From Takakia lepidozioides (lineage: Eukaryota; Plantae; Bryophyta): a stretch of DNA of 64,000 nt. The position numbers and the translations under genes are program-made. The stretch covers positions 52,514,001-52,578,000 of the forward strand of contig CM060731.1 of assembly GCA_030704615.1 (NCBI GenBank). The letters are read 5' to 3'. Below the pieces are notes generated by a model. That model was not told the origin of the DNA. It saw nothing but the letters and a program-made list of their open reading frames with translations, and searched no databases. Shown here piece after piece: positions 10,412 through 40,718 of this stretch. Positions within the stretch are counted from its first letter, which is position 1; every line of letters begins with the position of its first letter.

Positions 10412-11700
10412 GCCGGGCCCCAGATCAATGCAAAAGATGGCTGGGACGCCACCTCAACCAACAGGGAAGCCGCAGAAAGGTGTAGACACTCCCTAGACTG
10501 TGTTCCTCGGAGCTATCCAGGGTCCATATTCTTCTCTACTCTTTCAGCAGAAACTGCACTCATTCACTTTATGATCATACCCACGGTGCAGTTGACATGA
10601 TTGTCCTCCATCAGCTTGCTCACTATTCTGCAGAAATCTGATAAATTTCTCTTTTCTCCAACCTGAGAGAGTTCTGGCCACAGCCCCCTGTAAGATACCC
10701 TTTCTTCTGCAAATAAACCCGCAGTTGGTCTCCTTAAAATGGAGTACTAAATTACCATAGTTGTGACACAGTGGTCTTCGTGGTGCAGTGCAGAGCAGCA
10801 ATTGCCTCACAGTGAGGATGGATAAAGGGCAGAAGGAGATGTACCTGCGGACTGATGACTTTGTTTTATCTTTCAGGGCATAGTCCCCTGAATATCCTCG
10901 CAAAGCCATTACGGGATTCTACCCAATGCAAGCCACATTATGCTTGGGACAGGGCGGGGGGAAGAGAGATAGAAAGCCAGAGAGATGGACAGAGCAGCTC
11001 CGAGGAATACAGATACAAACGTTTGTATGTTACTCGGGAACAGTGATTGCGAGTTGTATGCATTCTGTAGTTTATCGGCCAGACATTCATGGTTTTTGGT
11101 TCTTGTTCATTCTCTTCTTCCTTCCCATCTATTTCAAAGAATCTGTTTGGGGTTGGGGGAAAAGAATGTGTGTATGATGGTAAGACCCCAGATTGCAGTG
11201 CAGTGCAGTGCATTGTGGAGATGGGGCAGCTGCGAATGGTTATTGTTGAATTGCAGTAGAAGTGGGTCCATGATCATATGTTCAGAGGTACATGAGCTCC
11301 TCTATGGCTGTTATGAAAGAACAAGAGAGGAGGGATAAAGGGGACAAATGAGAAAACAATGCAAGGCCAGGAAGCACAACACTAAGCCTAGTTTCGAAGT
11401 ACTAAAATTGGGTGCTATGTACTTGCGTGGCTTGTGCCTTGCAACCAAGTCAATAGCACTGCAGATAAACTGATGAGCAACCTCTCATTGCTCCTTCGCT
11501 CTACCACCTCGCAAATTTCACATATACAGTCAAACACCGACCATCATTCATGTCAAAGCATCATTTCTGTCATGTCGACCCTCTTTTCTTAGAGTTCCCT
11601 TTGTTCTGAAATGTCAACCACATTATGAACTTGTAAACTTTGAAAAATGAGTATGTACATCAGCACTTGCACTTCCTAATATACATTGGAGGTCATCTGG

Positions 11701-15879: not shown

Positions 15880-17677
15880 CCACCACCTGGAAGTGACATG
15901 GAAGGTCCATGGTGACATTGTGAAAGCTATTGTAGGGTTTGTCATTCTGAACACCGCCCTGGTGGACATGTATGCCGAATGCAGGAGCATTAAAGATGCG
16001 GAGGTACTGTTCGACTGTGGCTCAACGAGATGTGGTGTCGTGGAGTGCAATGATCGCATTGGCAGCAAGGCAAGGATGTATGCATGATTTGTGCAGAGGT
16101 AGTGATAGCTGAAGGAGCAGGATAGAGTATGGGTCCATATTCATCCAAGAGGGTCGGATTTCAAGCTCCAGATTACCTATGGATCCCTATGGAAGGATAG
16201 CTACAAGAAACCTCCATGGGTAGATGGTTAGCTGGAAGCGGCAGCTGTAGCGGCACAATTGATAAAATCAGGCACCTCAACCATGACCACAGCTTTTGGA
16301 AGAGGATCAAGCGAGGGAGTCCACAATGCCTCTTCTGGCACTTATGGGCATGTGAAGATGCTTTATGAGGCAAGCAGACTGAAAGAGGCTCTACAAACTT
16401 TAAATCAAAGAGGCATTTTCAGTATATGTAGATACGTATGTGTGTCTCTTGCATAAGTGCATCAAGATGAAAGGCCTAGAAGTTGGAAAGCAGGTGCACA
16501 CTCACATTGTCCAAAGTGGATTCACACCGAACGTTTTTCTACTCAACAACCTTGTCAACATGTATGTTAAGGGGAGCATCATGGATGATCACCAAGTGTT
16601 CAACACAAAATGCCTCAACGATCTTTGATCATGTGGAATATAATGTTGGCGGGCTTACCAAGCATGGGCGTGGTACGAATGCTTTGGAGACCTGTGAGCA
16701 AATGATGCGCGAAGGGGTGAAGCCCAACCACGTCGCGTTTGTATATGTTTGCAATGCGTGTGCAACATTGAGCCCTGGACAAAGGGCAAAGAGGTGCATG
16801 GGGTATCATCAAAGCTGGAATTGTACCAAATGTCATTATGAACACTGCCTTGGCAGCTCTGGAAAAGGGGAAAGAGATCCATGGCGACATCTTCAGAGCT
16901 AGAATTGTACCAAATGTCATTCTGAACCATACCATAGCTTTGGAAAAGGGGAAAGAGGTCCATGGCGACATCTTCAGAGCTGGAATTGTATCAGATGTCA
17001 TTCTGAACAATACCCTGGTGAACATGTTTGCAAAATGTGGGTGCATCTAGGATGCAAAGGGAGTGTTCGACACTATGGCTGAATGAGACTCTGGTGTCAT
17101 GGAGTGCGATGCTTGCAGGGTATGCAAGGCAGGGACGTGGGATGGAGGCTTTGGAGAGCTATGAGCAAATGATGGGGGAAGCACATCATGTTTGTGTGCA
17201 TTTGCAATGTGCGTGCAAGCCTGGCAACCCCGGAGAAGGGCAAGAGGTGCATAGGGATATCATCAAAGCTGGAATTGTGCCAAATGTCAATCTGAACACT
17301 GCCCTGGCAGCTTTGGAAATGGAGAAAGGTGCATGGCGACATCTTCAGAGCTGGAATTGTACCAGATGACATTCTGAACAATACCCTGGTGGACATGTTT
17401 GCAAAATGTGGGTGCATCTAGGATGCAAAGGGAGTGTTCGACACTATGGCTGAATGACATATGGTGTCGTGGAATGCGATATATGCGTTTGTAGGGTATG
17501 CACAGCAGGGATGTGGAATGGAGGCTTTGGAGAGCTATGAGCAAATCATGGGGGAAGCACATCATGTTTGTGTGCATTTTCAATGTGCGTGCAAGCCTGG
17601 AAGCCCTGGAGAAGGGCAAGAGGTGCATAGGGATATCATCAAAGCTGGAATTGTGCCAAATGACAATCTGAACACTA
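15880..17677 (+). pseudogene. Degenerate PLS-PPR pseudogene with internal tandem duplications, interrupted by a retrotransposon
   Basis: LYEASRLKEALQTLNQRGI, GKQVHTHIVQSG, MFAKCGCI* and similar motifs with many frameshifts. About 16950-17290 is duplicated at about 17320-17677. Confidence 0.85.
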
Positions 17678-18901
17678 TGTCGTACGCATACATATCGCTA
17701 CACAACTACATCGCTGTCCAAAACCACACAACACATGTGCACACCACACACTAGTATACCACTAGTCCAACCACTAGGCTACAACTAGTCAGTCACTAGG
17801 CTGCCACTATGCTGCCCACTATGGCAGTTACTAGTCCACACAATAGAGGGGCTAGTGATAAAGAAGAAGAATACAAGCACAAGCTCATGCGAGCTCACAC
17901 AGCTGAAGCATAAACTCATGCATATATAACCTCATCACTCAAATACAAATCAAGCCAAGTGCACCCCACGCCATGGGGAATCCACACTACGGCGCCATAG
18001 CTAGGCGCGGTGAGGCTCAACTCGAGAAAGATGAGCCTCCCGCGCTTGCCGTGAAGATAACCACTCCAGGGCCTAAATCTGCCTTAACCCCTGGATTGAC
18101 ACTTGGGCCAATCCCAAATGTCAATATGTAAAAGCTAGCTATTTCCTAGCTAGTTTCACACTAGTGGTAAAATAACTTGACAGCTGTCGTACGCATACAT
18201 ATCGCTACACAACTACATCGCTGTCCAAAACCACACAACACATGTGCACACCACACACTAGTATACCACTAGTCCACCACTAGTCCAACCACTAGTCCAA
18301 CCACTAGGCTACAACTAGTCAGTCACTAGGCTGCCACTATGCTGCCCACTATGGCAGTCACTAGTCCACACAATCGCCCCCCTAGCTGGTGCTTAGGTCC
18401 CTCTAAGTTCAGGTAGCCACAAGATGTGATAGTTACCATAGCCTCACTAAGTCCTCAACCACTGTCCCTACTACACTCAAACTCGATAGATCAAGAGGCC
18501 GGGTGCAAGAGTTGCCCCATCGTTAGTCGTTGTCTTGCAACCTGTGAACGCTTGGGATCTCGTGTATTGACTCCTATAAGCTTGGCCTCCCATGTCTTGT
18601 TAGCTGCCTCCAGTCATATCCACTGCCACTATCCCAAGCAGTGTGGACACAACCAATCTCCGTCAGGAACCTTCTCAAGAGGTGATGTCAAGCATCCCAT
18701 ATGCCAACCCCTTGAGCATCAATCACACACCAGCATGGTGGCTGCCCCTTTGGCAGACCCACAGAGCATGCACCTCAAACCTGCAGGTACCACTGCCAAG
18801 TTTGGGTCAACTCTGCCATCGACATTGGGAAGGTGACATGACGCACAATTACGCACATGGTCCTTCCAAGTCATGCCATCCCGACCCTCCAAGATCAGGA
18901 C
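17678..18901 (-). mobile_element. 3' end of Gypsy copy 0 (INT C-terminus/PHD, PPT, B-gc-A-B repeats); the rest is lost after 29252
   Basis: Reverse complement of 28541-29239. B2 17678-17842, junction 17843-17855, A 17856-18182, gc, B1 18185-18372. The sequence resumes as tcctgaggg at 29244-29252. Confidence 0.9.
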
Positions 18902-19228
18902 TGTCAAGTTATTTTACCACTAGTGTGAAACTAGCTAGGAAATAGCTAGCTTTTACATATTGACATTTGGGATTGGCCCAAGTGTCAATCCAGGGGTCAA
19001 AGAAGATTTAGGCCCTGGACTGGTTATCTTCACGGCAAGCGCGGAAGGCTCATCTTTCTCGAGTTGAGCCTCACCGCGCCTAGCTATGGCACTGTAGTGT
19101 GGATTCCCCATGGCGTGGGGTGCACTTGGCTTGACTTGTATTTGAGTGATGAGGTTATATATGCATGAGTTTATGCTTCAGCTTTGTGAGTTCGCATGAG
19201 CTTGTGCTTGTATTCTTCTTCTTTATCA

Positions 19229-19240
19229 CTCGAGAAAGAT
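19229..19240 (+). promoter_or_regulatory. Putative self-priming PBS CTCGAGAAAGAT
   Basis: Perfect complement of 19052-19063 (ATCTTTCTCGAG) inside repeat A; no TGG tRNA-type PBS. Confidence 0.7.
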
Positions 19241-20684
19241 CAGCTCGTATCTATGAGTGCTAGATACGAGTTAGTTGTAGCACTTGTGGTTTTTGCTTGA
19301 GAATGAGAGAAACCAAGTTGTTATGCAAAGAGCACCGTGGAGCTCTTGGTTGTTAGAAGCGGAGGCGATGTGGGTTACGAGGTGGTAAACCTTGGCATTC
19401 GATCTTCAGCTTCAGAGATGAAAGCACCATACTGCAGGTAATTCCAGAGCACCTTGATGGTTTCAGATTGTGTACATGCATGAGCAAGCACGATTGGGAA
19501 GAGGACCAGTCAAGAGCAGGTTATAGTGGCTTTGGTGGCAAAGCTGAGAACTGGACTTGGGAATGCGAGCTTTCATTGTGTGAAGGATTGCAAGACCAAG
19601 CGAAAGGGCTGATTTGGCTTGGGGCAAATCAGTGCACTTTGTGGAGTATGGTGAGATTGGGTTTCAATCTCGAGCTTCAGCATTGAGAGGGCTCTTGTCA
19701 TGGCGAGAGCAGGGCTGGAACAGGAGCTAAGAGGTGCGGCAAGGCCATGGAATGTGCACCTAGGGTTTCAGAGCTTGGAAGAAGAGTTCTTGCACCACAA
19801 GAGCAGTGTCTTGTGGCTGGAAATGTAAGCCTTAGGGTTTCAGGAGCTTGGCAAAGGTTGTGGAGTGCTTAGTCTTGTCTTAGAGAGCATCAAGGAACCA
19901 AGGAGCCAAGATAGGGAGCTGATATCTCTTGTGTGAAGAGGTTGCATGTGTGGAGCATGCTATCAGCCTGGTGAAGGCTTGCACTTTCAGGTGTGGGAGT
20001 GCAAGAAAGGAAGGAAGGGGCTGGTTTCCCTGTAGGGCAAGTGGAGCATGCTTTCAGCCTGTTGAAGCTTGTATTTTCAGGTTTGTGGGTGCAAGAAATG
20101 AAGCAAAGGAGCTGATTCTCTTATGGTGAGAGTGGGGCATGTTTGGAGCATGCCTTCAGCCAATTGAGGCTCTTGTTTTCAAGCTTTAGAGAGCTAGAAC
20201 GGAAGGTCTAGGGCTGGTTTCCACTTGGAGTGAAAGAAAAACACTTGTAGGGCCTATGTGAGTTGGGGTTTCAACTTCAAGCTTGAAGAGAGCGCAACTC
20301 TTGAAGCAGCAGGTGTAGGGGGCTGGAATAGGCTCTAAGACTGATGCTATGGCCAAGGAGAGTGCTTGAATGAGCGCTCACAAGGGCTGGGAACCAGCAG
20401 GGCTTGGTTGTTTGCCATTGAGTTTAGTGGCGTGTTTGGGGAGGCTAAGTGAGAAAGAAGGCTTGGTTTGTGGCAACCACCTCATGGCTTAGGGCTACTA
20501 TGGTGGTGTGTGGGAGCCGAAAGAGCAAGAATACCTTGTTGATTTCCTCACAGCCGCCATAGCTCGGTGGAAAGAAGCCTAGAGTCCAAGAGACACAAAC
20601 CCTAGCTTGGCGTGGCTAAACCCCTTGGAGAAATGGCTAAACTGCCAGAGCGGCCATGGATGGGGTTGTGACGGGCTGTGCCCA

Positions 20685-21995
20685 TGGCCTTTGGGGCTGT
20701 GATGGGCTGTGAGGGGCTGTGACAGGCCGTGCCTGAGGCCTTTGAGGCTGTGAGGGGCTGTGAGGGGCTGTGACAGGCTGTGCCCATGGCCTTTGGGGCT
20801 GTGATGGGCTGTGAGGGGCTGTGACAGGCCGTGCCTGAGGCCTTTGAGGCTGTGACGGGTTGTGAGGGGCTGTGACAGGCCGTGCCTGAGGCCTTTGGGG
20901 CTGTGACGGGCTGTGACGGGCTGTGTCAGGCCGTGCCTGAGGCCTGTGGGGCTGTGAGGGGCTGTGACAGGCTGTGCCCGTGGCCTTTGGGGCTGTGAGG
21001 GGCTGTGATAGGCTGTGCCCAGTGGCCTGTGGGGCTGTGACGGGCTGTGCGGGGCTGTGACAGGCTGTGCCCATGGCCTTTGGGGCTGTGATGGGGTGTG
21101 AGGGGCTGTGACAGGCCGTGCCTGAGGCCTTTGAGGCTGTGACGGGCTGTGAGGGGCTGTGACAGGCTGTGCCCATGGCCTTTGGGGCTGTGATGGGCTG
21201 TGAGGGGCTGTGACAGGCCGTGCCTGAGGCCTTTGAGGCTGTGACGGGCTGTGAGGGGCTGTGACAGGCCATGCCTGAGGCCTTTGGGGCTGTGACGGGC
21301 TGTGACAGGCTGTGCCTAGTGGCCTGTGGGGCTGTGACAGGCTGTGCCCATGGCCTTTGGGGCTGTGATGGGCTGTGAGGGGCTGTGACAGGCTGTGCCC
21401 ATGGCCTTTGGGGCTGTGATGGGCTGTGATGGGCTGTGACCGGCCGTGCCTGAGGCCTTTGAGGCTGTGACGGGCTGTGAGGGGCTGTGACAGGCCGTGC
21501 CTGAGGCCTTTGGGGCTGTGACGGGCTGTGAGGGGCTGTGTCAGGCCGTGCCTGAGGCCTGTGGGGCTGTGACGGGCTGTGATGGGCTGTGAGGGGCTGT
21601 GACTGGCTGTGCCCATGGCCTTTGGGGCTGTGATGGGCTGTGAGGGGCTGTGACAGGCCGTGCCTGAGGCCTTTGAGGCTGTGACGGGCTGTGACGGGCT
21701 GTGACAGGCCGTGCCTGAGGCCTTTGGGGTTGTGACGGGCTGTGAGGGGCTGTGACAGGCCGTGCCTGAGGCCTTTGGGGTGTGAGGGGCTGTGAGGGGC
21801 TGTGACAGGCCGTGCCTGAGGCCTTTGAGGCTGTGACGGGCTGTGACGGGCTGTGACAGGCCGTGCCTGAGGCCTTTGAGGCTGTGACGGGCTGTGACGG
21901 GCTGTGACAAGCTGTGTGGGGCTGTGACGGGCTGTGACAGGCTGTGGCGAGCTGTGACGGGCTATGAGGGGCTGTGACAGGCTGTGCCCAGTGGC
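20685..21995. repeat. Tandem array in the 5' leader of copy 1: about 51-bp higher-order units built from GGGCTGTGA(C/G/T) 10-mers
   Basis: Units start at 20721, 20772, 20823 and so on; two main variants (cctgaggcc / cccatggcc). Confidence 0.95.
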
Positions 21996-22842
21996 CTGTG
22001 GGACTATGACGGCTGTGACCAGTGAGCTGTGTGGGCCTGTGCTGGTCTGTGGTGGCCCGTGTTGACCTGTGGACGGCCTGTGCTGACTCGTGGAGGCACT
22101 GGTGGACTGCCTAAGGACTGGCATGTGGTCTGGAAGGCCGAATTTTGAAGCTCGTGGAGGGCGGTTTGAGGAGTATCTTCATGATATTCCCATGGTCATG
22201 CAAGTGAGGGAAGAGAGGAGAGGAAGAGTGTTGGGATGAGGGCATGCTGGGGTTAGGCATTGCTTTAGCTTCTCTTCCTCGTAGTTTCCACCCTCTCATT
22301 AGACCAAGACCTTTCCGTAGGTGGAGGCAAGAGTCAGTCCGGGTTTGGGCTGGGGTGTCCTTGCAGGAGCAACACCATGGAGATGTTTTTGGTGTGGGGG
22401 AGTTGTCGTTCTGATTTCTTGTGTTTGGATCCCCTCCATACCTGCATGCTTGACTGTGCATCATGCTAGTTTTGTGTGGGCGCTTGTTTTTATAGGTGAT
22501 TGGTCCGGATTTGATCACCGGCCAGTCTTAGAGCATGTTGTCGATGGTGAGGTTGGGGTGATGACCAGCCAGACCATCAATGTTTCTCCTGTGGTGAGGT
22601 TGGAGGTGATGACCAGCCAACCATAGGAGTGCTTGCGGTGGATGCAGGTACAGGTGTAGGCTATGTTAGGAACTTAGTATTCCAAACCATAAGCCGCAAC
22701 AGGTTCTCTACCCGGTTACCTTGTGGAGAGGGGGTTAGGGACATGTTCATGACCGGTTGAGTGTCAACACGGAGGTGCCACTAGTTGTTGGGACAGTGCC
22801 GGTTCGAGCACTAGCGATACTAGTGGGTACACGAGACGAGGT

Positions 22843-25317
22843 GTGCGGTTTAGGCCACCTTCACCTCCTGTGTTTTCCACGGAAGGTTCTGATTCGGATT
22901 GTGAATCAGGAGGACTCATACCGGCGGTGCAAGTTGTTTCTTTGTCATTGTTGTGGGACACAATGGAGGAGATGTATGGAGCTACCAAGGGGCCACGAAG
23001 GTACTCTAGGGTGGTGGGCACCATCGAGTTGGATGATTTTATCCAAGAGTTTGATAGTTGGTGTGATTTGCAGCAAATGCGCAATCCACAACTATTTACG
23101 CCTTTCATGGCATGGAAGGGGCTGTTTCAGCACCTTGAGGGGCCGCCTATGGATGATTACCATGAGTTCAGGCGGGGGCATGAGGTTGAGATCGAGGAGT
23201 GGAGGATGTACTGGTCACCCAACTATGTCTCCACTAGGGGCACTAGAGCCACAAGGGCAGTGGCTGCACCTGCCGCTGCACCGGCAGCTTCAGCAAGTAG
23301 CAGAGGGACTAGTGGGACTGGTGGTACAGTAGCTACGATGTCCACCCAAGCCACTACCGCATCAGCACTAGTACCCGTACCTGCCTTCAACCCTGTTGTG
23401 GAGTTCTTCGAAGAGTTGAGATGGAACTACCAAGGGGTGAGGACAGAGAAGTTGCGGAGCTTGCAAGAGTTCCAACGGAAGCCGACCGAGAGCTTGAGGG
23501 AGGCTTTCACTCGCATGAGGCGCTTGATAAATGTAACCCAAGGGGTTACGGAAGCTCAGGCAGTCCAATTCTGGTATGGGATATTGGACAAGGAGCTGAG
23601 GAGAAGGGTGCGGGATGCAACTCTCCTACAAGTGGCCTAACCCACCTTAGCAAATGTGTTTTTGCTGGCAGAGCGGATAGAGCTCAACATGGTGGAGGAA
23701 CGAGTGGTCATGGTGGGATTTGCTAAGGAGACGCCACGGGGTAGTGGTGCTCCTAGCCAACCACTACCTCAACGTGCTCAAGGCAACAAGGGGGCTCAGG
23801 TGAAGCTCAGGGAAGGGCAGAGAGGACCTCAGATGCAGGGGTCTCTCCCTTCATTTGCTGGCCAACAACGGGCGGATGTGGTGTGCTGGACATGTGGAGG
23901 ACCCCATGTCAAGAAGGATTGTCCAGAGGGAGGCAAAGGGCCGGCACATGCACAGCCTGCACAGTTGCAGTGTGGGCATTGTGGCAAGCACGGGCATGGA
24001 GAGGCCCAGTGTTATGGTTTGCATCCTGAGTTGCGCCTAGGTCAGTTCCAAGGGAATAATGGTGGCCGGGGGCGAGGTGGAGCAGCCCAGAGAGGACGAG
24101 GTGGCCAGCCACGAGGTGCAGGCCAAGGCCAAGCTCAACATGGCCAAGGACGCGGAGGTCAGGGTGTTGACCAAGGCATGGCCAACCGGCTTCAACAGCT
24201 AGAGCAGAGGCTCGCTGCCATGGCTACAGCTCAGGTGGTACCGGCTCTAAGGCCGGATGGTCCACCTCCTGTTCCTGAGGGAGGAGATATGGGAGGCATG
24301 GGATTCATGTGTGGAGCAGCACTACCACTAGTGCAGGTGGAGTCTGCTGCAGCCGTGACTCGAGGAGCAGCACGAGTTCCTGAGCCACGAGGTACAGAGG
24401 TGGAGTTGGATCCACAGCGTGGGGAGGCAAGCCGTCAGGCTAGGCTTCCTCAGTCATTCACATTGGCGGAGACAATGTCGACGCCATCCATGGCACCTAG
24501 TTCTCGCCCGACTGTTACCGAGGCGGAGGTTACTATGCCATTGGGGAGAGCTACACGGGTAGCAGCACTACCTAGTGTTGCCAAGGCTACGGCAGCTAGT
24601 GTGCTGCTAAGAGCGGCCACATCTGTGTGCCAGGCTCCATTGTTCTCGGCTACCATGATTACGACGCCGGGGGTAAGACCAGCTGAGGTGTTCAGGCTGG
24701 CAGCTACACTCTATGAGAGTGGGGAGGTTACTTCATCTTCTGCGGAGATAGTAGGAGGTGTAGTGCCGGAGGGATCCTCGGATTTGAGGGTCAATACTGC
24801 CACGGCGGCGCCATGGCAAGCTGCAGCTACCAGGTTGATGGAGCTGCCAGCTAGGCCAGCCATTGAGCGCGCCATGGTGACACCTGGAGTTGTCATGTTA
24901 GACAACCAGGATGGCATTTTCTGTTTGAGTGGACCGGCAGGCAAGAGGTACCGGCCACTGCGGGTCTTGTTGGACTCGGGAGCTCAGCCATTGATGCTGG
25001 GCAGAGCTGCTATTGCAGGCTTGGGCCTCACGGAGGCGGATATGGAGCCTTGTCCTTTCCAGATACAGACGTCTCTGGGAGGATCGGAGCAGGCTCGGGG
25101 CATGACACGGCATGAGTTGGCTATCAGACTACGGCCGGATCACCCTACAGATGGCTCAGTGATGCGAGCCAAGGCCATTGTGACAGACGCAGTATCATAC
25201 GATGTCCTGGTTGGTGGGGCAGTGTTGTACCCCATGGGCTTCACCCTTGGGAGGAGTCAGCTTCCTATAGGCCTGCATGGCAGTCAGGGGAGGGCCGGCG
25301 TGTGCAGCTCCCTGTGA
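22843..25317 (+). pseudogene. gag (two zinc knuckles) plus aspartic protease of copy 1
   Basis: CWTCGGPHVKKDC and CGHCGKHGHGEAQC; LLDSGAQP protease motif at about 24967-24990; CAA>TAA stop at 23638; frameshift near 25250. Confidence 0.85.
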
Positions 25318-26927
25318 CGTTCATAGGAGGAGTTGCGGTTGCCCAGCGAGGCAAGATGCCGACACTAGCAGCATTCACAGCGGCAGTGAGTTGGCCTAGA
25401 GAGTTGCTTGAGGGCAATGCTCATTCAGAGGATGTACCACCTCCGAGAGAGCAAGATGACATGTATGGTATGGCGGAGTTGCCTACCATGGTTGCTCAGA
25501 CTCCATTGTGGGGCACGAGCAAGGATTTGCAGCGGGATGCTGATCGACGGGTGCAACAAGCCTGGGTGGAGGCTTTTGTACCGTCAAGAGAGGAGGAGAG
25601 TGCGGGGATTGCACCAGGACCACCTCAGTTGTCTCCATTGGACATCACACCTATTGTGTGGCAGTATCCGGATGAAGGCATTTATCTTCTGGACTTGTTT
25701 GGCGGGATCAGCACCGGATTGGCTGTTGTGTTACAGGCAGGTGTACGAGTTCGGCGTTACCTGTATGTGGAGAGGGATGAGACTGCACGACGCGTTTCAC
25801 TTCGCCATGTTGCTCAGTTGGTGCAGCGGTACCCTGAGTTGTTGTCGGTGTCTGCAATTTGTGGATATCAGCAGGCCTTGCCAGCAGACATTTCGTTGCT
25901 GGGGGCGCAGGATTTGGAGCGGGTTGGCTCCATTGATTTGGTAGTGGCAAGTTGGCCCTGCCAAGGGCATTTATCAGCCGGGCATGGCAATGGATTGCGA
26001 GACTCGAGGTTGGGTCTGTTTCGGGAGATAGTGCGGATTTTGCGCCACTTGCAGCTTCATCAAGCTGTATCTCCAGCATACATCTTGGAGAATGTGCCAC
26101 TGATGGGCGATTCTCGGGCCAGGGTGATGGCCAGTGTGCATCAAGTCCGGTCGTGGCTTGGGTCAGCAGTGTTGCTAGATGCAGCTACAGTGGGGTCACG
26201 GGCTCATCGTCCACGGCTATGGTGGACTAACTTGATGCCACCCGCACTGCTCAAGCGTGCATTTGATGGGGTGCAGTGGCCAGCACATCTCACAGTGGAT
26301 AACATTCTGGACACAGGGAGGCAGTCTCAGCGTGTGAGACACGATGACCGTTCGCCTTTGGCAGTGGTCAACAAGGTGGGTCAACCACGGGCAGCATTAC
26401 CTACACTGCTCAGCTTCCCAGGATCGCATGCTTTCCGGGATAGTGGACCTGGCCTCCTGTGGGATGCTCAGTTGCAGCAGTTAGTGGAGCCTAATGCTGA
26501 CGAGCGTGAGCGGGCAATGGGTTTTACCACTGGTACCACGGCGGTGTCGTCTCTTTCTGAGGCATCACGTCGTCAAGTGTTGGGGCAAGCAATGGATCTC
26601 AATTGCTTGACCTGGATTATCAGCTTGGCTCTGGCTGAGCAACGCAGAGTGCGGAGTACACTTCCCTCAATGGTCTCTCTGCCTACCGAGACGGTACAGG
26701 CAGTGAGTGGGGGCGAGCATGTGAGGACCACGGGGTGCATGCATCCATGGCACACGTGGGAGGTGCTCGAGGTTCAGAGGGAGTTGGCAGCCAAGGCGGC
26801 TGTGATGGATGAGGTTGGGGATTCTTCTCGGGTTGATGAGGTCCTCAAGGATGAGATGATGGGGCAGGATGAGGCCTTGTCATTGACTGAGCAGGCAGGG
26901 AGTACTGCTCAAGAGGTTGCGGCATAG
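25302..26927 (+). CDS. C5 cytosine DNA methyltransferase domain (DNMT3-like, non-permuted) inside the pol polyprotein
   Basis: Motif I LDLFGGISTG, II VERD, III ADI, IV SWPCQG (catalytic PC), VI ENV, VIII AHRPRLWWTN, IX ERERAMGF, X LGQAMD; core about 25680-26640. Confidence 0.9.
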   Translation: MQLPVTFIGGVAVAQRGKMPTLAAFTAAVSWPRELLEGNAHSEDVPPPREQDDMYGMAELPTMVAQTPLWGTSKDLQRDADRRVQQAWVEAFVPSREEESAGIAPGPPQLSPLDITPIVWQYPDEGIYLLDLFGGISTGLAVVLQAGVRVRRYLYVERDETARRVSLRHVAQLVQRYPELLSVSAICGYQQALPADISLLGAQDLERVGSIDLVVASWPCQGHLSAGHGNGLRDSRLGLFREIVRILRHLQLHQAVSPAYILENVPLMGDSRARVMASVHQVRSWLGSAVLLDAATVGSRAHRPRLWWTNLMPPALLKRAFDGVQWPAHLTVDNILDTGRQSQRVRHDDRSPLAVVNKVGQPRAALPTLLSFPGSHAFRDSGPGLLWDAQLQQLVEPNADERERAMGFTTGTTAVSSLSEASRRQVLGQAMDLNCLTWIISLALAEQRRVRSTLPSMVSLPTETVQAVSGGEHVRTTGCMHPWHTWEVLEVQRELAAKAAVMDEVGDSSRVDEVLKDEMMGQDEALSLTEQAGSTAQEVAA

Positions 26928-27232
26928 CAACCACGGGATGTGTCCTCTACCTCTAAGTCTGCTGGACTTAAGGTTGCAGTTACGAAGGGCAATTGGGAGC
27001 TTGACATTGGACCTATTGTCACTAGAGGAGAGAGACGACGTATACGGCGGTTCCTGAGGCTTACAGGAATTGCTTTGCCTCTCGTGCTACGGTGGATGAG
27101 CATGAGAGACATGTTCAGGTTGTGCATCGATTGGGTTTGGTCAATAGGGATGCGGATGGATTGAGTCGCAATCCATGCACGAGCCAGTAGGATGACACTG
27201 GAGCTCGGTGGCATGGTGAGACGGACGAGGAG

Positions 27233-28813
27233 ATGGTGCCGGGATGGCACGCATCTACATTTTTGTGTATCTTGGCATCGGGAGGTCAGATTGGACCTAC
27301 AACAGGGATGACTGTAGACGGAGTGTCTGAGGACCCTGAGGCTAGTGATGAGCTAGGTGGTGCCAGAGATATACATGAGGATTCGGCTGTGTTGGACTAC
27401 CTCCGCACGGGAGACACGGCAGCCATTGTGACTGCCAGGGAGAGGGATCGGATCCTGCAACGAGCCAAGAGGTTCAAGTGGGAGGGGATACACCTACTTC
27501 GAGTGTGGGAGGATGGTCGGGTGAGGATTGTGCCTCACCCCACACAGCGTGCACGGTTAGTGCGGCATGCCCATGAGGAGTTGGGGCATTTTGGAGTGCG
27601 ACGCACTCACAGTTTACTGCAGGGGCAGTATTGGTGGCGTGGTATGCATACAGAGGTGCAACAGTTCATGGCTAGGTGCATGGTGTGTGACAGGGTGCGT
27701 GCTTCATTCAACGCCCCTACACCACAGTTGCATCCTTTACCAATCATGGGATTGGGCTACAGGTGGAGTCTTGACTTCGCAGGACCGTTGCCACTGACTA
27801 TGCGCCACCACATATATGTGTTGGTGATGGTGGAGCACTTCTCCAAGTGGATTGAGTTGGTTCCATTGCCTGACAAGGCTAGTGAGGGGGCTGCGTATGC
27901 ATTCTTGGATCGTGTGCTTAGCCGATTTGGTGCTCCAGCTGAGGTACTCACGGACCAAGGGAGAGAGTTCTTGGGGGAGTTTCAGGCTTTGTGTGATAAA
28001 GCCTTGATAGACCACCGCACCACTTCTCGGGATCATCCTGAGGCCGATGGCTTAGCAGAGAGCGTTGTTCAGACGGTGAAGAGGGGTTTGCGCAAGTATG
28101 GCTTGCAGAAGGGACACCTAGGAGATTGGGATCTTCAGGTTCCTTGGTTAGCCATGGGCTACAGGTTCAGCAAACAAGCATCACTTGCCTCCTTCTCACC
28201 ATATTTCCTTCTCTTTGGCCGAGAGCCGGATTTGCCTGCAGCCATTCGTAGGGACACTGCTCAAGTCCTTAACCTTGGCGACCCGGACGTGTGGGTACGT
28301 GCATGTAATCAGCGTGCAGAGTTGTTCAAGAAAGTCATGCCCATGGCTTTTGAGAACCTTGCCATTGCACAGCACCGTGATACGTTGAGGTATGCCACTA
28401 TACGTGGTGGAGGATATCGTCCTGGGGTTCGGAGGTTTAGCCCTGGTGACTATGTTTATTTGCACCAGACTGCTCCTACGACTCTGGATGTTACTGCAGG
28501 GTGTGTTATTCTGAGGGTTCGAGAGGTGTTGCCCTCAGGGGTCCTGATCTTGGAGGGTCGGGATGGCATGACTTGGAAGGACCATGTGCGTAATTGTGCG
28601 CCATGTCACCTTCCCAATGTCGATGGCAGAGTTGACCCAAACTTGGCAGTGGTACCTGCAGGTTTGAGGTGCATGTTGTGTGGGTCTGCCAAAGAGGCAG
28701 CCACCATGCTGGTGTGTGATCGATGCTCAAGGGGTTGGCATATGGGATGCTTGACACCACCTCTTGAGAAGGTTCCTGACGGAGATTGGTTGTGTCCACA
28801 CTGCTTGGGATAG
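27233..28813 (+). CDS. Integrase (HHCC, DDE) with C-terminal PHD finger, copy 1
   Basis: HEELGH..CMVC, WSLDFAGP, LTDQGREF, LAE; CMLC..CDRC..WHMGC..WLCPHC (C4HC3). Confidence 0.92.
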   Translation: MVPGWHASTFLCILASGGQIGPTTGMTVDGVSEDPEASDELGGARDIHEDSAVLDYLRTGDTAAIVTARERDRILQRAKRFKWEGIHLLRVWEDGRVRIVPHPTQRARLVRHAHEELGHFGVRRTHSLLQGQYWWRGMHTEVQQFMARCMVCDRVRASFNAPTPQLHPLPIMGLGYRWSLDFAGPLPLTMRHHIYVLVMVEHFSKWIELVPLPDKASEGAAYAFLDRVLSRFGAPAEVLTDQGREFLGEFQALCDKALIDHRTTSRDHPEADGLAESVVQTVKRGLRKYGLQKGHLGDWDLQVPWLAMGYRFSKQASLASFSPYFLLFGREPDLPAAIRRDTAQVLNLGDPDVWVRACNQRAELFKKVMPMAFENLAIAQHRDTLRYATIRGGGYRPGVRRFSPGDYVYLHQTAPTTLDVTAGCVILRVREVLPSGVLILEGRDGMTWKDHVRNCAPCHLPNVDGRVDPNLAVVPAGLRCMLCGSAKEAATMLVCDRCSRGWHMGCLTPPLEKVPDGDWLCPHCLG

Positions 28814-29252
28814 TGGCAGTGGACATGATTGGAGGCAGCTAACAAGACATGGGAGGCCAAGCTCGTAGGAGTCAATACATGAGATCCCAAGCTCAAGTTC
28901 ACAGGTTGCAAGACGGCGACTAACGATGGGGCAACTCTTGCACCCGGCCTCTTGATCTATCGAGTTTGAGTGTAGTAGGGATAGTGGTGGAGGACTTAGT
29001 GAGGCTATGGTCACTATCACATCTTGTGGCTACCTGGACTTAGAGGGACCTAAGCACCAGCTAGGGGGGCAATTGTGTGGACTAGTGACTGCCATAGTGG
29101 GCAGCATAGTGGCAGCCTAGTGACTGACTAGTTGTAGCCTAGTGGTTGGACTAGTGGTATACTAGTGTGTGGTGTGCACATGTGTTGTGTGGTTTTTGGA
29201 CAGCGATGTAGTTGTGTAGCGATATGTATGCGCACGACAGGACTCCTGAGGG

Positions 29253-30818: not shown

Positions 30819-30908
<90 letters not shown>

Positions 30909-30920: not shown

Positions 30921-30974
30921 TGATGAAACAAAACAAAACAAAAAGAGGTTGGGGGGGGAGTTACTGAGCAGAAG

Positions 30975-32560
30975 GGGTTGGGCTTTTGGCTCAGCCTCGA
31001 GACTTTTAAAGTTGGTAAACAGAGGTACATGCACAATTCCCTTGATAGATTTGAAGAGAGCGTCTCTTTGGTGAGAGAACCCCAGACATCAAAAAATGAA
31101 TACTGTCTTCAGATTGCCCACACAACGGGCAATTGCACTCTCCCTTTCCTCTCTGCTTCTGTTTACTGTTCAAAGGTAGTCTTCCTGCCCTGAGTTTAAA
31201 TTTCAGTATGGTGCCAAGAGTGGGATAGACCCTTGAGCGCATCCATGATGTCCTCCCCCATGTCACAGACTAGAAACAGGTTCAGGAAAGTTTTCTTCTT
31301 AATTTTCATTTTCATCGGACAATTTTCTGGTAACAGACATGGCTTTGGACTCTACACTCTCTAAGTCAGGTTTATCCAGCAAGGTCAAGACTTGCGGGTC
31401 CAGATTCAGATCCTTGAGAATCTCTTCTACTCTCTTCTCCCAGGGCTTACCCTGTTTGACAGGGCGGTCCTATTTCCAAGATATAGAGTCGATTAACTTT
31501 GGATATCTGGTGTTGGACATATGTTGCAGCTGAACCCACCATCTTACCTTGAATTTATCTTGTCTGGAGCTTGAAAGAGAGCAGCACAGAAGAGAGGGAG
31601 AGAGAGAGAGAGAGGTAGAGAGGGACAGAGAGAGGGAGTGAGAAGGAGACATCAGGGGGCAACAAAGAAAATAAAATAAAAGAAGGTGGGGGGGGGGGGG
31701 AGTGACTGAGCAGCTGCTGCTGCTCAGTCACACCGGATCCCCCCCCCACATTTTTATTTTTTTTCTTTGTTGCCCCCTCTCTTGGGGAAACAAAAGGGAC
31801 AGATCCTACCTCTTTCAGGGGCTGACGTTGGTAGTAAGACTTACTTTCACGTACAGAATTAATCCGGGTTTTCCAGATATCCTCTATAAATCCCTTCACA
31901 CAAGCATCAATCTGATGTGTGTGAGTTGCCCAAAAACTAGGCCTCAGAAGGGGCTGGGCTTTTGGCTCAGCCTTGACACTTTCAAAGATAGTAAACAGAC
32001 GTACATGCACAATTCCCTTGATAGATTTGAAGAGACCGTCTCTTTGGTGAGAGAACCCCGGATAGTGTATCAGAAAATGAATAATGTCTTGAGGTTGCCC
32101 ACACAATGGGCAATTGCACTCTCCCTTTCCTCTCTGCTTCTGTTTGCTTATCAAAGGAAGGCTTCTTTCCCCAAGTTTAAATTTCAGTCTAGTGCCGAGA
32201 GTGGATAGACCCTTGAGGTCATCCAAGATGTCCTCCCCCATGTCATAGACTGGAAACAAGTTCAGGGAAGTTTTTTGCCTAACTTCATTTTCACCAGACA
32301 ATCTCATGGCAACAGATATGGTTGGACACTACAGCCTCTAAGTCAGATTTATCCAGCAAGGTGAAGACTTGCGGTTCCAGGTCCAGGTCCTTGAGAATCT
32401 CTTCTACTGTCTTCTGCCAGGACTTAGCCTGTTTGACAGGTCGGTGGGTGGTCCTGTTTCCAAGATATAGAGTCGATTAACTTCGGAAATCTGGTGTTGG
32501 ACATATGCTGCAGCTGACCCCACCATCTGACCTTAAACTCATCTCGTCGGGAGCTTAAAA
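30975..32560 (-). mobile_element. Two tandem copies of an internally deleted LINE 3' fragment
   Basis: CPLCGQ..D..HFL zinc-finger end; homologous to 54090-54790; copies at about 30975-31575 and 31790-32560. Confidence 0.55.
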
Positions 32561-32569
32561 GAGAGGGAG

Positions 32570-37350: not shown

Positions 37351-38199
37351 CTCTCTTTTTAACTTTTTCTACCCCCTCTCTCCCTCTATGGGATTTGTTT
37401 TGTGAGCAGCACAAAAGAGAGGAGAGAGAGAGAGAGAGAGAGAGAGGGGGAGCGAGAGGGACAGATCAGGAAACAAAAAAAAAAAAAAAAAAAGATGGGA
37501 GGGGAGTGACTGAGCAGCTGCTGCTCAATCATCCCCCCCCCCACCCATTTTTTTTCATTGTTGTCCCCTCTCTCCCTCTGTCTCCCTCCTCGGAATTGGC
37601 CGGTTGCATCAGTGTTCTTTTCATGTTTTTCCATCTATACCGGATGGATTCTAAACAGTGTTTTCACTTGCCCTATAAAGTTTTTCTATCCATACCGGAA
37701 GATTTACCTGGGTGGACACTAAAATACCTCTAAAAAGGGTCTATAATTTTTCATTCCTCTTTTATTGACTTTCATCTATGTCATGGTTTTAGTCATGGTT
37801 ATCTAGAATTACCTACTTCTAGTTAACTAGGACATTTTAGATATTTATATTTATATTTTGTGTGTTGGGACTTCATTTGGTCTCACATGCCAAGTGAGGT
37901 GTTGAGCCTCACTTGAGACATGGAGATAGGTTTTCCCCTTGTGAGTGTTGAGGAGGCTCATCTTCTTGTAGTTGAGCCTCTATGAGCTTCTCTCACCTCC
38001 ATAGCTCTAGGTATTGAGAGGGAGTGTGTTGAGGGCTTTGTAGGGTGGATTCCTTTAGCAAAGGTGCCATTGGCTTGACTTAGTTTATGTGATAGAGTGG
38101 ATTTCACTTGGAAGGACTAGGGCTTGTTCTTCATGTGATTGCTTCATGCTTTGAGAGCTTTCATTGTCTTCTACTTCTCTCATTTCTCATCTCTTATCA

Positions 38200-38211
38200 C
38201 TACAAGAAGAT
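38200..38211 (+). promoter_or_regulatory. Putative self-priming PBS CTACAAGAAGAT
   Basis: Perfect complement of 37960-37971 (ATCTTCTTGTAG) inside repeat A. Confidence 0.7.
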
Positions 38212-39504
38212 CACCTTATGCTTGTGAGTGCGGAGTGTAAGGATTAGTTTTGCACTTGTATTTTAAAGAGGTTGAGAGCTAGGAGAATTTAGCTCTTGTA
38301 TCACAAGGCTTGCAAGGGGTTGCAAGGAAAGGTGCTCAAGTATTGCATGCACCAAGGAGTTGGAGAGCTTGAGAAGAAAGCTCTTGAGTCACAAGATTTT
38401 GCAAGGATTGTAAGGAGGAAGTCTTATGTGTGTGGAAGCATGGATTCTAGGGTTTGAGAATCCTTTCTATGCATTATGGAGTCGATGGTGTGCGCCATGG
38501 CTTGTGGAGAGTGACTAAAGGCTTGTTAGTGCTCATTTCACTATCAAGCTAGGGTTAAGCAAGTTCAAAGTGTGGATGTTGTGGAAGAGAAGCCAATGAG
38601 CTATATATGCTTGGGCTTGAAGACAACAAGGGCAAGCACTTAGAGAGCACTAAGAAGCTCAAGAGGTTTTGAAAGGGAGCATGTGAAGAAATCTTCCAAT
38701 CATGGTGGTGTGGAGCCAAGCTTAGGGTGCCATTGGAAGGGCTTGGAGAACATGTGGTGGGAAATCCTTGAAGGGAAATCATCATTCAATGTATGCATAG
38801 CTTCACCCTAACTATGTAATGTGACAAGAGGGGGAGGCAATACTTGGCTATTCATGCTCTTGGTAGTGCGAGCTTTGTGGTGGATAGTTGACCAAGCAAG
38901 TGGTGCATGTGTGAAGCATGCTCGCTTGAGTTTGTAAGTTCAAGTTTGAGAAGGGGAGCTCTTGAACTAGCAAGAGGTGAAGGCCTTTGAGATCCATTTG
39001 TGTGTGAAGTGGAGAGGTGTTGATTCATGTTATGATGAAGGAGAGCAACACATAGGCCAAGAGGTCATGAAACATGCATTCAAATGATCACGGGGAGCAC
39101 ATGGATGATGGATTGGTGCAAGACCCCGAATGAGGCATATGGCGTGAGAGTGGGATCCAAGGCGGATTGCTTGGGAGCATTATTGTAAGTGACAAGCATT
39201 GCTCCTACACATTGAGATAATTTGTGTTGATTTGGAGCAATTGTCAAGTGATGAGAAGACAAATGCATGATTGCTCGGCAATGGAGATATGGTAGTTTGC
39301 AATCAAATCCCAAGGACTAGAAGGGGGATTGATTTGGTGGACAATAACTTGCAAGTTGAGTTGGACCACTCTTGGTTGCACATTGGGGTGGAAGAGAGCA
39401 AGAAGATGCCTCTTATGACCACCTAGAGACCATATTTTTGCTTGAGTAGAAGCATAGAAGTCAAGGACTTGCATTCCAGCTCTTCATTACAAACCCTAGT
39501 AGTG

Positions 39505-40050
39505 TATGCTCAGACTATACCTATGTTAGTATACCAAACAGGAGCTTGTCCCTTTGACTATACCTCTGTTGAGGTATCACCATATGTGAACCCTAATGTG
39601 AGACTATACCTCTGTTAGTATACCAAACATGAGCTTGTCCATTTTACTATATCTCTATTGAGGTATCACCATATGTGAACCCTAATCAGCTCAGACTATA
39701 TCTCTGTTAGTATACCAAACAGGAGCTTGTCCCTTTTACTATACCTCTGTTGAGGTATCACCATATGTGGACCCTAATCAGCTCAGACTATACCTCTGTT
39801 AGTATACCAAACAGAACCCTCATTTTCAGACTATACCTCTGTAAAGGTATCATCAACATAAGGGACCCTAGCAGCCTCAGACTATACCTCTGTTAAGGTA
39901 TCAACAGTGAAAGGACTTACTGAAATTTAAGGGCCTTTGGAGGATTGTTTGGAAGATATTTGAGGGCCCTTAGAGGAGTATTTGGAGGATCTTTGGGGTC
40001 CTTGGAGGAGTGTTTGGAGGATCTTTGGGGTCCTTGGAGGACCCTTCGAG
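39505..40050. repeat. Tandem repeats in the 5' leader of copy 2 (about 91-bp gactatacctctgtt units, then about 33-bp tttggaggatc units)
   Basis: Direct reading. Confidence 0.85.
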
Positions 40051-40718
40051 GAGCTTTGGTGGACAATGTTGAAGAGCTCTTGAAGGATTGATTGAGGGAT
40101 ATTGAAGGATACTTGCCACGGCCATACAAGCGAGTGGATAGAGACAGGAGGGAGAGTGGTGGGATGAGAGCATTCTGGGGTTAGGAATTGCTTTAGTTTC
40201 TCTTCTCCATAGTCTTTCACCCTCTCTGTAGGCCAAAACCTTTCCGTAGGTGGAGGCAAGAGTCAGTCCGGGTTTGGGCTGGGGTGTCTTTGCAGGAGCG
40301 ACACTGTGGAGTGTTTTTGGTCTGGGGGAGTTGCTGTCTTGATTTTCTTGTGTTTGGATCCCCTCCACACCTGCATGCTTGACTGTGCGCCATGTTAGCT
40401 TTGTGTGGGCGCTTGTTTTCATAGGAGGTTGGTCCGGATTTGATCACCGGCCAATCCTAGAGTATGCTGTCGGTGGTGAGGCTGGAGTGATGACCAGCAA
40501 GACCACCAGTGTTTCTTCTATGGTGAGGCTGGGTTGATGACCAGCAGACCATAGGAGTGCTTGCGGTGGATGCAGGTGCAGGTACAGGTCTACGTTAGAA
40601 ACCTATTGTTCCTGCTTGAACCAGTAGCCGCAACAGGTTCTTTACCCGGTTACCTTGTAGAAAGTGGGGATTAGAGACAGGTTGACAACCGGTTGGGTTG
40701 TGAGTTTTCATCACGGAG

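Follow-up and report, generated by a model that had tools for sequence, protein, structure and literature searches.

The window, i.e., the whole stretch of 64,000 nucleotides analysed here, contains a Ty3/Gypsy-type retrotransposon (copy A, about 18901-29239) that bears a C5 DNA methyltransferase (DNMT) domain. Taken together, the data make it likely that copy A is a decayed, RT-less copy of a Ty3/Gypsy-type element with a DNMT3-like domain in pol, that its family is a repeated one, both here and in bryophytes, and that the enzyme would probably methylate new DNA of the element itself. Plants silence transposons mainly through DNA methylation; a writer of this mark encoded by a transposon is therefore counter-intuitive. 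To our knowledge, DNMT-encoding transposon families were documented until now only in dinoflagellates and in one charophyte alga. In agreement with the initial annotation, which did not know of them as a well-described feature of land plants, no description of DNMT-bearing elements of this kind in land plants was found in the literature. The same kind of element is now shown, highly repeated, in a land-plant genome. That the host is a land plant, as had been read from the flanking genes, is borne out by a PLS-type PPR gene, the named best matches of which are all from embryophytes (29-48% identity).

The DNMT of copy A is encoded on the forward strand by an open reading frame of 603 codons from stop to stop (25116-26927), within which the 541 open codons counted from 25302 in the initial annotation are found; the catalytic domain corresponds to positions 25668-26660. 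The proposed check against the Pfam profile PF00145 gives a match above the cut-off (E 9.8e-9, 35.5 bits for a cut-off of 22), which spans profile positions 49-155 of 324 only. Motifs I (LDLFGGISTG), IV (SWPCQG), VI (ENV), VIII (RPRLWW), IX (ERERAMGF), and X (VLGQAMD) (usual numbering) can be read in the translation and in the alignment with DNMT3A, in the canonical, unpermuted order that had been announced, and the catalytic motifs are kept across 23 aligned family members. Using phmmer, the top solved-structure match by sequence is DNMT3A (5.9e-9). When a family profile is compared with the PDB, DNMT3A (1.4e-24) and DNMT3B (5e-22) rank ahead of DRM (4.8e-11, in permuted position), M.HhaI (1e-6), and DNMT2 (1e-4), and none of the 50 matches is a chain named DNMT1. 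An AlphaFold2 model of the domain (pLDDT 88.8, pTM 0.89) was submitted to Foldseek, and the top matches listed are all DNMT3A/B/C (E about 1e-19, TM 0.70/0.81). A search of the Protein Atlas placed a streptophyte PF00145 cluster nearest and phage methylases next, at an equal score, which added nothing to this identification. The sequence comparisons and the predicted fold thus indicate a non-permuted, DNMT3-like C5 DNA methyltransferase, closer to DNMT3 than to DRM, DNMT2, or bacterial enzymes, where closeness means the ranking of PDB profile and fold matches, in place of a tree. The domain shares with animal DNMT3A/3B/3C (e.g., PDB 6f57, 6u8p, 8tci) the fold, the motif order I to X, and the PC(Q/N) and ENV signatures. 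However, identity to the animal enzymes is about 20-23%, the PWWP and ADD domains are absent, motifs VIII and IX stand further apart, with a lower model confidence for the stretch that separates them, and the surrounding protein is a retrotransposon polyprotein.

From 5' to 3', copy A shows gag, zinc knuckles, protease, DNMT, integrase, and a C-terminal PHD finger, all on the forward strand. Its probable 5' end is a 330-bp "A-type" terminal repeat (V1, 18901-19230) with 97% identity to the V repeat of another copy (fragment C, below). V1 starts with (C)TGTCA, as do the A repeats of the sister copy B and of a further locus, L044. A tandem array with a 51-bp period and 27 register copies (20532-22060) lies in the leader upstream of gag; the long minus-strand open reading frames across this array are repeat artefacts. 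The gag frame (22753-23640) is 84% identical in nucleotides to that of copy B and gives a weak match to Retrotrans_gag, under the cut-off (E 0.0014). It ends at an in-frame stop (23638-23640), at which the translation of copy B has a Q. The next frame (23641-25317) encodes the zinc knuckles of the nucleocapsid and an aspartic protease with the motif LLDSGA (DSG at 24973), both read from the translation. Pfam gave no match for this frame; Asp_protease_2 is matched in relatives at the corresponding position. The protease frame, which ends at 25317, differs from the DNMT frame, which opens at 25116; because of this difference, the polyprotein of copy A is not continuous. The initial view of a DNMT embedded in a Gypsy-type polyprotein, downstream of the protease, is borne out. 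Downstream, a frame of 540 open codons (27191-28813) encodes an integrase with an H2C2 zinc domain and an rve core, followed by the PHD finger (Integrase_H2C2 4.7e-15, rve 3.4e-14, PHD 1e-10). A G-rich, polypurine-like run lies just before a 168-bp "B-type" terminal repeat (U, 29072-29239), and no A2 or B2 follows U. The ends of copy A are A1 and a single B only, and the complete pair is absent.

In copy A, neither Pfam, nor the translation, nor the comparison with copy B revealed any domain of RT or RNase H in the interval from the DNMT to the integrase. Two deletion junctions (27080/27081 and 27113/27114, forward strand) mark the place where RT and RNase H were lost. Between them lies a 33-nt RT remnant (27081-27113), and from 27114 on, what is left of RNase H is its final 28 codons or so. 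Thus, of the claim that the domain sits between protease and RT, the position downstream of the protease stands and the order is true for the family, whereas in copy A itself the RT and RNase H are deleted. In a record of contig X13 (record 15; same organism), the segments 26553-27080 and 27114-27476 are joined around about 1281 extra nucleotides, and the loose ends at that junction match, by eye, the RT and RNase H coding DNA of copy B. The RT-less junction itself is covered at a likeness of at least 97% in runs X1 and X2, both of which may be the assembly's own sample; in run X5, positions 26935-27138 are without cover at this likeness. The private differences of copy A number 349; the 15 listed as best supported, in the DNMT frame, are nonsynonymous in 13 cases and synonymous in 2. 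Copy A is therefore decaying: RT and RNase H are deleted, gag is cut by a stop, the frame shifts ahead of the DNMT, and the private changes mostly alter the protein. As judged from these substitutions, its DNMT appears not to have been under constraint since insertion. Further movement of copy A could take place with RT from other copies, which it would need.

The sister copy B (37779-46686, forward strand) keeps RT and RNase H and is without protease and DNMT, so that the losses of the two copies are complementary. It is 84-90% identical in nucleotides to copy A outside the swapped segment. Homology between the two stops at A24943/B42899 and restarts at A27114/B44136. Within its internal part with gag (40108-46096), copy B has a frame for RT, RNase H, and IN (42131-44749) and one for rve and PHD (44750-45835), with Pfam matches to RVT_1, RT_RNaseH, Integrase_H2C2, rve, and PHD. 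The DNMT is missing from copy B because of one deletion that took the protease as well, the junction of which reads ...SGPAG/IELATDTPIF in the translation. Copy B starts with repeat Y1 (37779-38199) and ends with X1 (46101-46179), Y2 (46180-46600), and X2 (46610-46686); Y1 and Y2 are identical at 420 of 421 positions, and X1 and X2 at 96%. A reading of copy B as a canonical element with a 421-bp LTR pair was rejected, because a 78-bp unit stands on both sides of the 3' copy and because fragment C and L044 show this layout again. Fragment C (17678-18901, reverse strand) is the 3' end of a third copy, with the end of IN-PHD, U1 (18374-18185), V (18183-17854), and U2 (17844-17678), and is 93.5% identical to positions 28541-29240 of copy A. 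With the U repeat of copy A, U2 shares 98% identity and U1 87%. An insertion of copy A into fragment C was also considered and rejected, since no continuation of fragment C was seen past 29240.

The ends of these elements are thus split direct repeats, A1 ... B1-A2-B2, as seen in copy B, in L044, and in fragment C (which shows B1-A2-B2), and not two identical LTRs bounding the element. DIRS, Ngaro, and PAT-like retrotransposons have a split direct repeat layout, and share with copy B, fragment C, and L044 the terminal plan A1 - internal - B1 A2 B2. In contrast to these retrotransposons, Pfam found no DIRS-like tyrosine recombinase in the DNMT elements, which have rve and Integrase_H2C2 in its place, and 4-bp target duplications flank the DNMT-family elements in two cases (TCTA at copy B, AAGG at L044). 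A DDE integrase with a short target-site duplication, known from Ty3/Gypsy elements, is therefore present, the duplication being seen in those two cases; the Ty3/Gypsy Pol order PR - RT - RNase H - IN is found in the family, with the DNMT after PR, and not in copy A. No clear primer binding site was seen by eye beside the A1 repeats.

The closest known system is KnitGypsy-Dnmt3 from Klebsormidium nitens, described as having a non-permuted Dnmt3-type domain in a Gypsy-type Pol frame, with key catalytic residues conserved and an indication of purifying selection (de Mendoza et al., 2018, Nat Commun 9:1341; PMC5890265). According to the legend of Fig. 4c of that article, its repeats are "the same as that of a DIRS retrotransposon," with Gypsy-like domains (PMC5890265). 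The present elements resemble it in the unpermuted Dnmt3 domain in a Gypsy Pol and in their A1 ... B1-A2-B2 ends, comparable to its DIRS-like repeats. They differ in their host, a land plant here, with relatives in liverworts and Sphagnum, as against a charophyte alga, and copy A differs in being without RT. By features shared with the text and legend of the article, rather than by phylogeny, the window element is filed here as a putative land-plant representative of the KnitGypsy-Dnmt3 kind. Neither the text of PMC5890265 nor three of its supplements contain the string "PHD". Green algal LTR retrotransposons with a PHD finger in the polyprotein, as here, have been reported (by Kapitonov and Jurka in 2003 and by Perez-Alegre et al. 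in 2005, as cited in PMC6673714); in contrast to these, the PHD finger here stands after the integrase core and alongside a DNMT domain.

The relatives show that an intact member of the family runs from gag and zinc knuckle through protease, DNMT, RT, and RNase H to integrase and PHD finger. The order PR-DNMT-RT-RH-IN-PHD is seen in Marchantia P0029 and P0063, and also in P0079, P0084, P0019, and P0045, and relatives of the order gag-PR-DNMT-RT-RH-IN-PHD occur in Marchantia, Calypogeia, and Sphagnum. Two protein searches yielded 55 and 47 matches, a relative is encoded by 116 metagenome stretches, and 620 clusters (50% identity) reach E<=1e-30; in the representative search, every one of the best 150 belongs to the family (E<=3.2e-87). 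When the window domains were compared by tblastn with the metagenome loci, the DNMT was placed before RT/RH in 48 of 80 loci, and 9 more comprised the 5' part only. A second lineage, which includes a green alga, has the order RT-RH-DNMT-IN-PHD, in which the DNMT immediately precedes the integrase and its PHD finger. The two gene orders coincide exactly with the two halves of the DNMT tree, and give a handle on the acquisition and movement of the domain. Within the present genome, the DNMT stretch is highly repeated: positions 24000-28000, including the DNMT part, are covered by 49,241 contigs of run X1 (a count of contigs, not of copies), and the cover of the DNMT part in the organism's DNA runs is as heavy as that of gag and of the integrase.

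Comparison of the copy A DNMT with 22 gap-free loci gave dN values of 0.21-0.27 in 20 cases and of 0.48 in the other 2, with dS above 2 or not computable throughout. The domain therefore appears to have evolved under constraint between lineages, with an omega that is inexact since dS is saturated. Among the close metagenome relatives, the median pairwise dN/dS is 0.57 (range 0.30-1.10, 227 pairs), and constraint is therefore visible over long distances only. Most close relatives are dead: of 65 metagenome loci (type 2 and probable type 2 left out), only 8 have a DNMT segment that is in frame and free of stops. Neutral evolution, raised as a possibility in the initial annotation, is thus at odds with the divergence between lineages and in line with the state of copy A.

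How would the enzyme serve the element? After de Mendoza et al. (2018), it can be proposed that in intact copies the DNMT is translated within Gag-Pol and freed by the protease, that it would be carried in the particle or the pre-integration complex, and that it would there methylate either the cDNA or the new insertion. The PHD finger of the integrase, likely a reader of histone tails, would guide the choice of the chromatin entered. Alternatively, the DNMT may act mainly in trans or on another substrate, with no role on its own cDNA: on host methylation, by interfering with silencing or by marking neighbouring chromatin, or on RNA. RNA methylation and host effects are offered as options by de Mendoza et al., and the Klebsormidium Gypsy DNMT domain produced no methylation in yeast, in its only published test, called inconclusive by the authors (PMC5890265). 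The position of the DNMT right before the integrase and PHD finger in the second lineage would also suit an action on target chromatin. However, the fold and motifs are those of the DNA-acting DNMT3 type, and the match to DNMT2, a tRNA enzyme, is far weaker; we regard this alternative as unlikely.

The openness of the DNMT frame over 603 codons, beside a broken gag and protease junction, together with its intact catalytic motifs and the methionines ahead of the domain (residues 81, 116, 119, and 125 of the frame), would also fit a domesticated gene kept by the host, with an internal ATG start and a stand-alone methyltransferase product of some 490 residues. Yet the integrase-PHD frame next door is equally open, the stretch is one among very many near-copies, and 13 of the 15 best-supported private differences alter the protein, some at family-conserved positions, e.g., beside motif IV. 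Moreover, none of the sequencing sets listed with the stretch is recorded as RNA (X13 being guessed as RNA), and domestication is highly improbable. Hardly any credit can be given to a one-off capture of a host DNMT3 by a single copy, a possibility already considered in the initial annotation, or to an assembly chimera at the RT-less junction. Within the window, the DNMT is indeed present only in copy A and missing from copy B, a member of the same family; however, this lack stems from the deletion that also removed the protease, the same domain is found at the same place in hundreds of relatives from several bryophytes and metagenomes, and both the heavy coverage of the DNMT part in the organism's DNA runs and the coverage of the junction in X1 and X2 (possibly the assembly's own sample) argue against it. 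The reading retained is that of a decayed copy from a repeated family whose enzyme would act on the element's own new DNA.

A wider reading can be put forward tentatively, as possible and still rather doubtful when all its parts are taken jointly. Retro-DNMT3 elements would form an old, species-rich clade of the green lineage with two fixed gene orders, present in land plants, highly repeated here, and recently mobile, since the end repeats of copy B differ at 1 of 421 bases, and their enzyme would methylate new insertions. If true, land-plant transposons would themselves write part of the methylation that they carry. Of 10 proteins looked at in one set, 1 had members with an organism name, and of 10 in another, 2 had, one being a Sphagnum and the other a bacterial MAG. 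Through the relatives in the public protein sets for Marchantia, Calypogeia, and Sphagnum, the question reaches organisms with genetics and methylome tools.

The DNMT open reading frame of copy A, a DNMT-bearing Ty3/Gypsy-type element (about 18901-29239, plus strand), is stop-free over 603 codons (25116-26927, plus strand), and the 541 codons that the initial annotation had described as open are part of it (25302-26927). As also claimed there, the catalytic motifs follow one another in canonical order along the translation, as motifs I (LDLFGGISTG), IV (SWPCQG), VI (ENV), VIII (RPRLWW), IX (ERERAMGF) and X (VLGQAMD). The frame matches PF00145, the profile proposed for checking it, above the Pfam cut-off (35.5 bits versus 22; E 9.8e-9), at profile positions 49-155 only. 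The closest solved structures by sequence are DNMT3A chains (5.9e-9). A family profile built from 23 members and run against the PDB ranked DNMT3A (E 1.4e-24), DNMT3B (5e-22) and DNMT3C (9e-22) ahead of plant DRM (4.8e-11), M.HhaI (1e-6) and DNMT2 (1e-4); the C-terminal half of DRM was aligned by the N-terminal motifs of the profile, as expected of a permuted enzyme. The AlphaFold2 model of 25668-26660 is confident (pLDDT 88.8, pTM 0.89), and the top Foldseek matches listed are all DNMT3A/B/C (E about 1e-19, TM 0.70/0.81). The earlier description of the domain as DNMT3-like rather than permuted like DRM agrees with DNMT3A heading the sequence, profile and fold rankings and with DRM being matched in permuted position. 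Judged by sequence and predicted fold, the domain of copy A is real and DNMT3-like, and its identity as the DNMT3-like domain of a retrotransposon family is very probable.

Searches with the 603-residue frame retrieved 55 proteins of about its own length and 47 that are longer. They include 13 and 9, respectively, from Marchantia polymorpha (43-75% identity over aligned parts), two from Calypogeia fissa (best 62%), two and one from Sphagnum species, and one protein with a bacterial MAG label. P0024 bears the annotation 'DNA cytosine methyltransferase' and is assigned to a 'Candidatus Obscuribacterales' MAG; since a 1359-residue polyprotein shares its 90% cluster, that contig probably entered the MAG as a eukaryotic contaminant. 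When 1.84 billion representatives were searched with a profile, 620 clusters scored E<=1e-30, the best 150 all at E<=3.2e-87. Gene orders, read from Pfam coordinates on 34 of the protein matches, are of two types: zinc knuckle, protease, DNMT, RT, RNase H, integrase (type 1; P0029 and P0063 from Marchantia, also P0079, P0084, P0019 and P0045) and RT, RNase H, DNMT, integrase, PHD (type 2; e.g. P0082 and P0091). A named member from the profile search, the 'pol' of the green alga Scenedesmus sp. PABB004, is of type 2, and named Sphagnum proteins lie in one cluster close to metagenome loci. Metagenome contigs were found to encode 116 relatives, and the 80 loci retained from these were classed with in-frame window queries: 48 are of type 1 (DNMT before RT/RNase H), 13 of type 2 and two probably so, nine hold the 5' part only, seven the DNMT only, and one (L010) has protease, DNMT, integrase and PHD without RT/RNase H, another deletion form.

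In a FastTree phylogeny of 222 DNMT domains (the window's own duplicate was left out, as were proteins with DNMT stretches below 270 or above 420 residues), a single branch with support 0.97 separates 115/115 type-2 or probable type-2 tips from 49/49 type-1 tips, the other 58 having no assignable gene order. The window DNMT falls in a 19-tip clade with Marchantia and Calypogeia (support 0.999). The domain is part of a large family of retrotransposons whose range includes land plants. In the type-2 lineage, the DNMT comes after RNase H and ahead of the integrase; its members are L057, L063, L065, L067, L068, L070-L077, L079 and L080 together with P0082, P0091 and P0251. Its ORFs are mostly long and intact (up to 3329 codons, L075), and the motif IV proline is replaced in the three members that were aligned (WSCQD, WECQD, WECSD). 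A 3.5-kb direct repeat in L063 (1-3501 and 6557-10057, 99.97% identical, RT-RNase H included) suggests that a type-2 element lies there in tandem or nested form.

Copy A itself carries, all on the plus strand, a gag frame (22753-23640; weak Retrotrans_gag match), one frame that encodes a pair of zinc knuckles along with an aspartic protease (23641-25317; LLDSGA, DSG at 24973) and, beyond the DNMT, one 540-codon frame in which Integrase_H2C2 and rve are joined by a PHD finger at the C-terminus (27191-28813). PHD fingers are already known in retrotransposons, according to the accessible text of PMC6673714. No RT or RNase H domain was found between DNMT and integrase of copy A. Copy B, a sister element (37779-46686, plus strand; internal part 40108-46096), is 84-90% identical to copy A on both sides of a swapped segment, which in copy A is 2171 bp with the protease end and the DNMT (24943-27114) and in copy B 1237 bp with RT and RNase H (42899-44136). 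Alternative gene orders in the two copies are ruled out by the protein junctions, which show the two segments to result from complementary deletions. Copy B passes from just before the protease directly to the RT start (SGPAG joined to IELATDTPIF). In copy A, the DNMT is followed by a linker to 27080, a 33-nt RT remnant made of the codons directly after the YIDD box (27081-27113) and, from 27114, the final ~28 RNase H codons. The initial annotation placed the DNMT between protease and RT; this is true of the type 1 relatives and not of copy A, where RT and RNase H are deleted. Copy A gag has an in-frame stop (23638-23640) where copy B has Q, and protease and DNMT of copy A lie in different frames, the break being near 25246-25247, a site where other copies vary in length; copy B has a stop between its two integrase domains (44747-44749). 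Copy A is a non-autonomous relic. L010 (10001-11508; gag-NC-PR-DNMT-IN-PHD) has breakpoints unlike those of copy A, and RT-removing internal deletions are recurrent in the family. Upstream of the copy A gag lies a tandem array of 51-bp period (20532-22060); the ORFs of 460-513 codons that it produces on the minus strand are artefacts. At the corresponding position, copy B carries a tandem repeat of another kind (39508-39895), and apart from this shared placement the two leaders are unalike.

A capture confined to this copy had been named as an outcome that would count against the earlier reading. The domain is found well beyond it, in relatives from bryophytes and metagenomes and in contigs of the same organism. 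In public DNA run X1, 49,241 contigs of at least 88% likeness fall on 24000-28000 and cover 30/30 bins, the cover being equally heavy over gag, DNMT and integrase (in summed contig depths, not copy number); a single-copy feature is thereby ruled out. Between its matches to 26553-27080 and 27114-27476, a 2173-nt contig of a second run (X13, record 15) has about 1281 extra letters, as many as the RT-RNase H segment takes up. Compared by eye, loose contig ends ahead of 27084 and of 27114 agree with the YIDD-box and RNase H-end DNA of copy B. The RT-less junction of copy A is covered at >=97% likeness in X1 and a third run, X2, possibly from the assembly's own sample.

The window differs from nearly all other contigs at many places. 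Among the 15 best-supported differences listed for the DNMT frame, 13 change the amino acid and two are silent, and some fall on family-conserved positions, among them the residue preceding motif IV. Copy A, it follows, has decayed ever since it was inserted. Over 24000-28000, the window has A/T for G/C of the X1 contigs at 98 of 220 places counted by kind and the reverse at 66, as would be expected if a methylated copy had decayed by C-to-T change. Between lineages, the window DNMT and 22 metagenome loci aligning gap-free give dN of 0.21-0.27 (0.48 for two loci) with dS above 2 or not computable in 22/22, so that the domain was kept under constraint during divergence, dS saturation precluding an exact omega. 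Neutral evolution, another outcome named against the earlier reading, is at odds with the constraint between lineages, yet copy A decays. Within the metagenome family, median omega is 0.57 (range 0.30-1.10; 227 pairs, dS 0.05-1.5). The DNMT segment is stop-free and in frame in 8/65 loci outside type 2 or probable type 2 versus 14/15 inside; the bryophyte-like copies sampled are mostly relics.

The 421-bp 5' repeat of copy B (37779-38199, TG...CA) recurs with one difference at 46180-46600, there with a 78-bp unit on either side (46101-46179 and 46610-46686, 96% identical). Fragment C, a 3' piece of a third copy (18901-17678, minus strand), follows this layout too (U1, V, U2), and so does metagenome locus L044 (A1 1676-2017, B1 10238-10350, A2 10350-10691, B2 10693-10805). 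In all three, a G-rich polypurine-like run precedes B1, and 4-bp duplications bound the whole A1...B2 unit in copy B (TCTA) and L044 (AAGG). The ends of copy A are incomplete, with a V repeat (18901-19230), one U (29072-29239) and unrelated sequence beyond. The A1...B1-A2-B2 layout is the split-direct-repeat plan of DIRS-like elements, found in the present family together with a DDE integrase. DIRS-type repeats with Gypsy-type domains are shared with KnitGypsy-Dnmt3, the Klebsormidium nitens Gypsy element with a Dnmt3 domain (Fig. 4c legend, PMC5890265).

In the accessible text of that study, Gypsy-borne Dnmt3 is described in Klebsormidium only, and the survey table includes Physcomitrella, Marchantia being absent (de Mendoza et al., 2018). 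Later papers citing it write of 'streptophytes (Gypsy-DNMT3)' in the portions available (10.64898/2026.05.21.726589, PMC12344493), and the available parts of PMC11982613, PMC10952607 and PMC6453930 make no mention of such elements. Within a limited full-text collection, no description of land-plant Gypsy-DNMT3 elements was found, in keeping with the initial remark that they are not known as a well-described feature there. From its place in pol and the 2018 proposal, the DNMT would methylate the element's own new DNA, a specific mechanism to which we give rather less than even credence. In yeast, the Klebsormidium Gypsy DNMT domain gave no methylation, in a test that its authors called inconclusive (PMC5890265, as far as accessible).

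The flanking genes had been taken to point to a land plant, and the PPR gene at 2131-5367 (plus strand; 1078 codons, intronless, sub-threshold E-motif match) bears this out, its named best matches being embryophytes only: the lycophyte Diphasiastrum at the top (44-48% identity), then conifer, fern, Ginkgo, liverwort and two flowering-plant proteins (29-43%). The host is a land plant, and the collection searched contains no annotated species that is closely related to it. A second intronless PPR gene (7494-9266, minus strand; 590 codons) is ~73-78% like the first in DNA, and with PPR-like remnants at 16272-17526 this looks like a local PPR cluster. Other repeat families of the window, 81-90% alike, lie at 30969-31581, 31945-32565 and 54172-54706, and at 47435-48682 and 52355-53644; their tested ORFs gave no Pfam match. 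A long (GA)n run occupies ~30820-30900.
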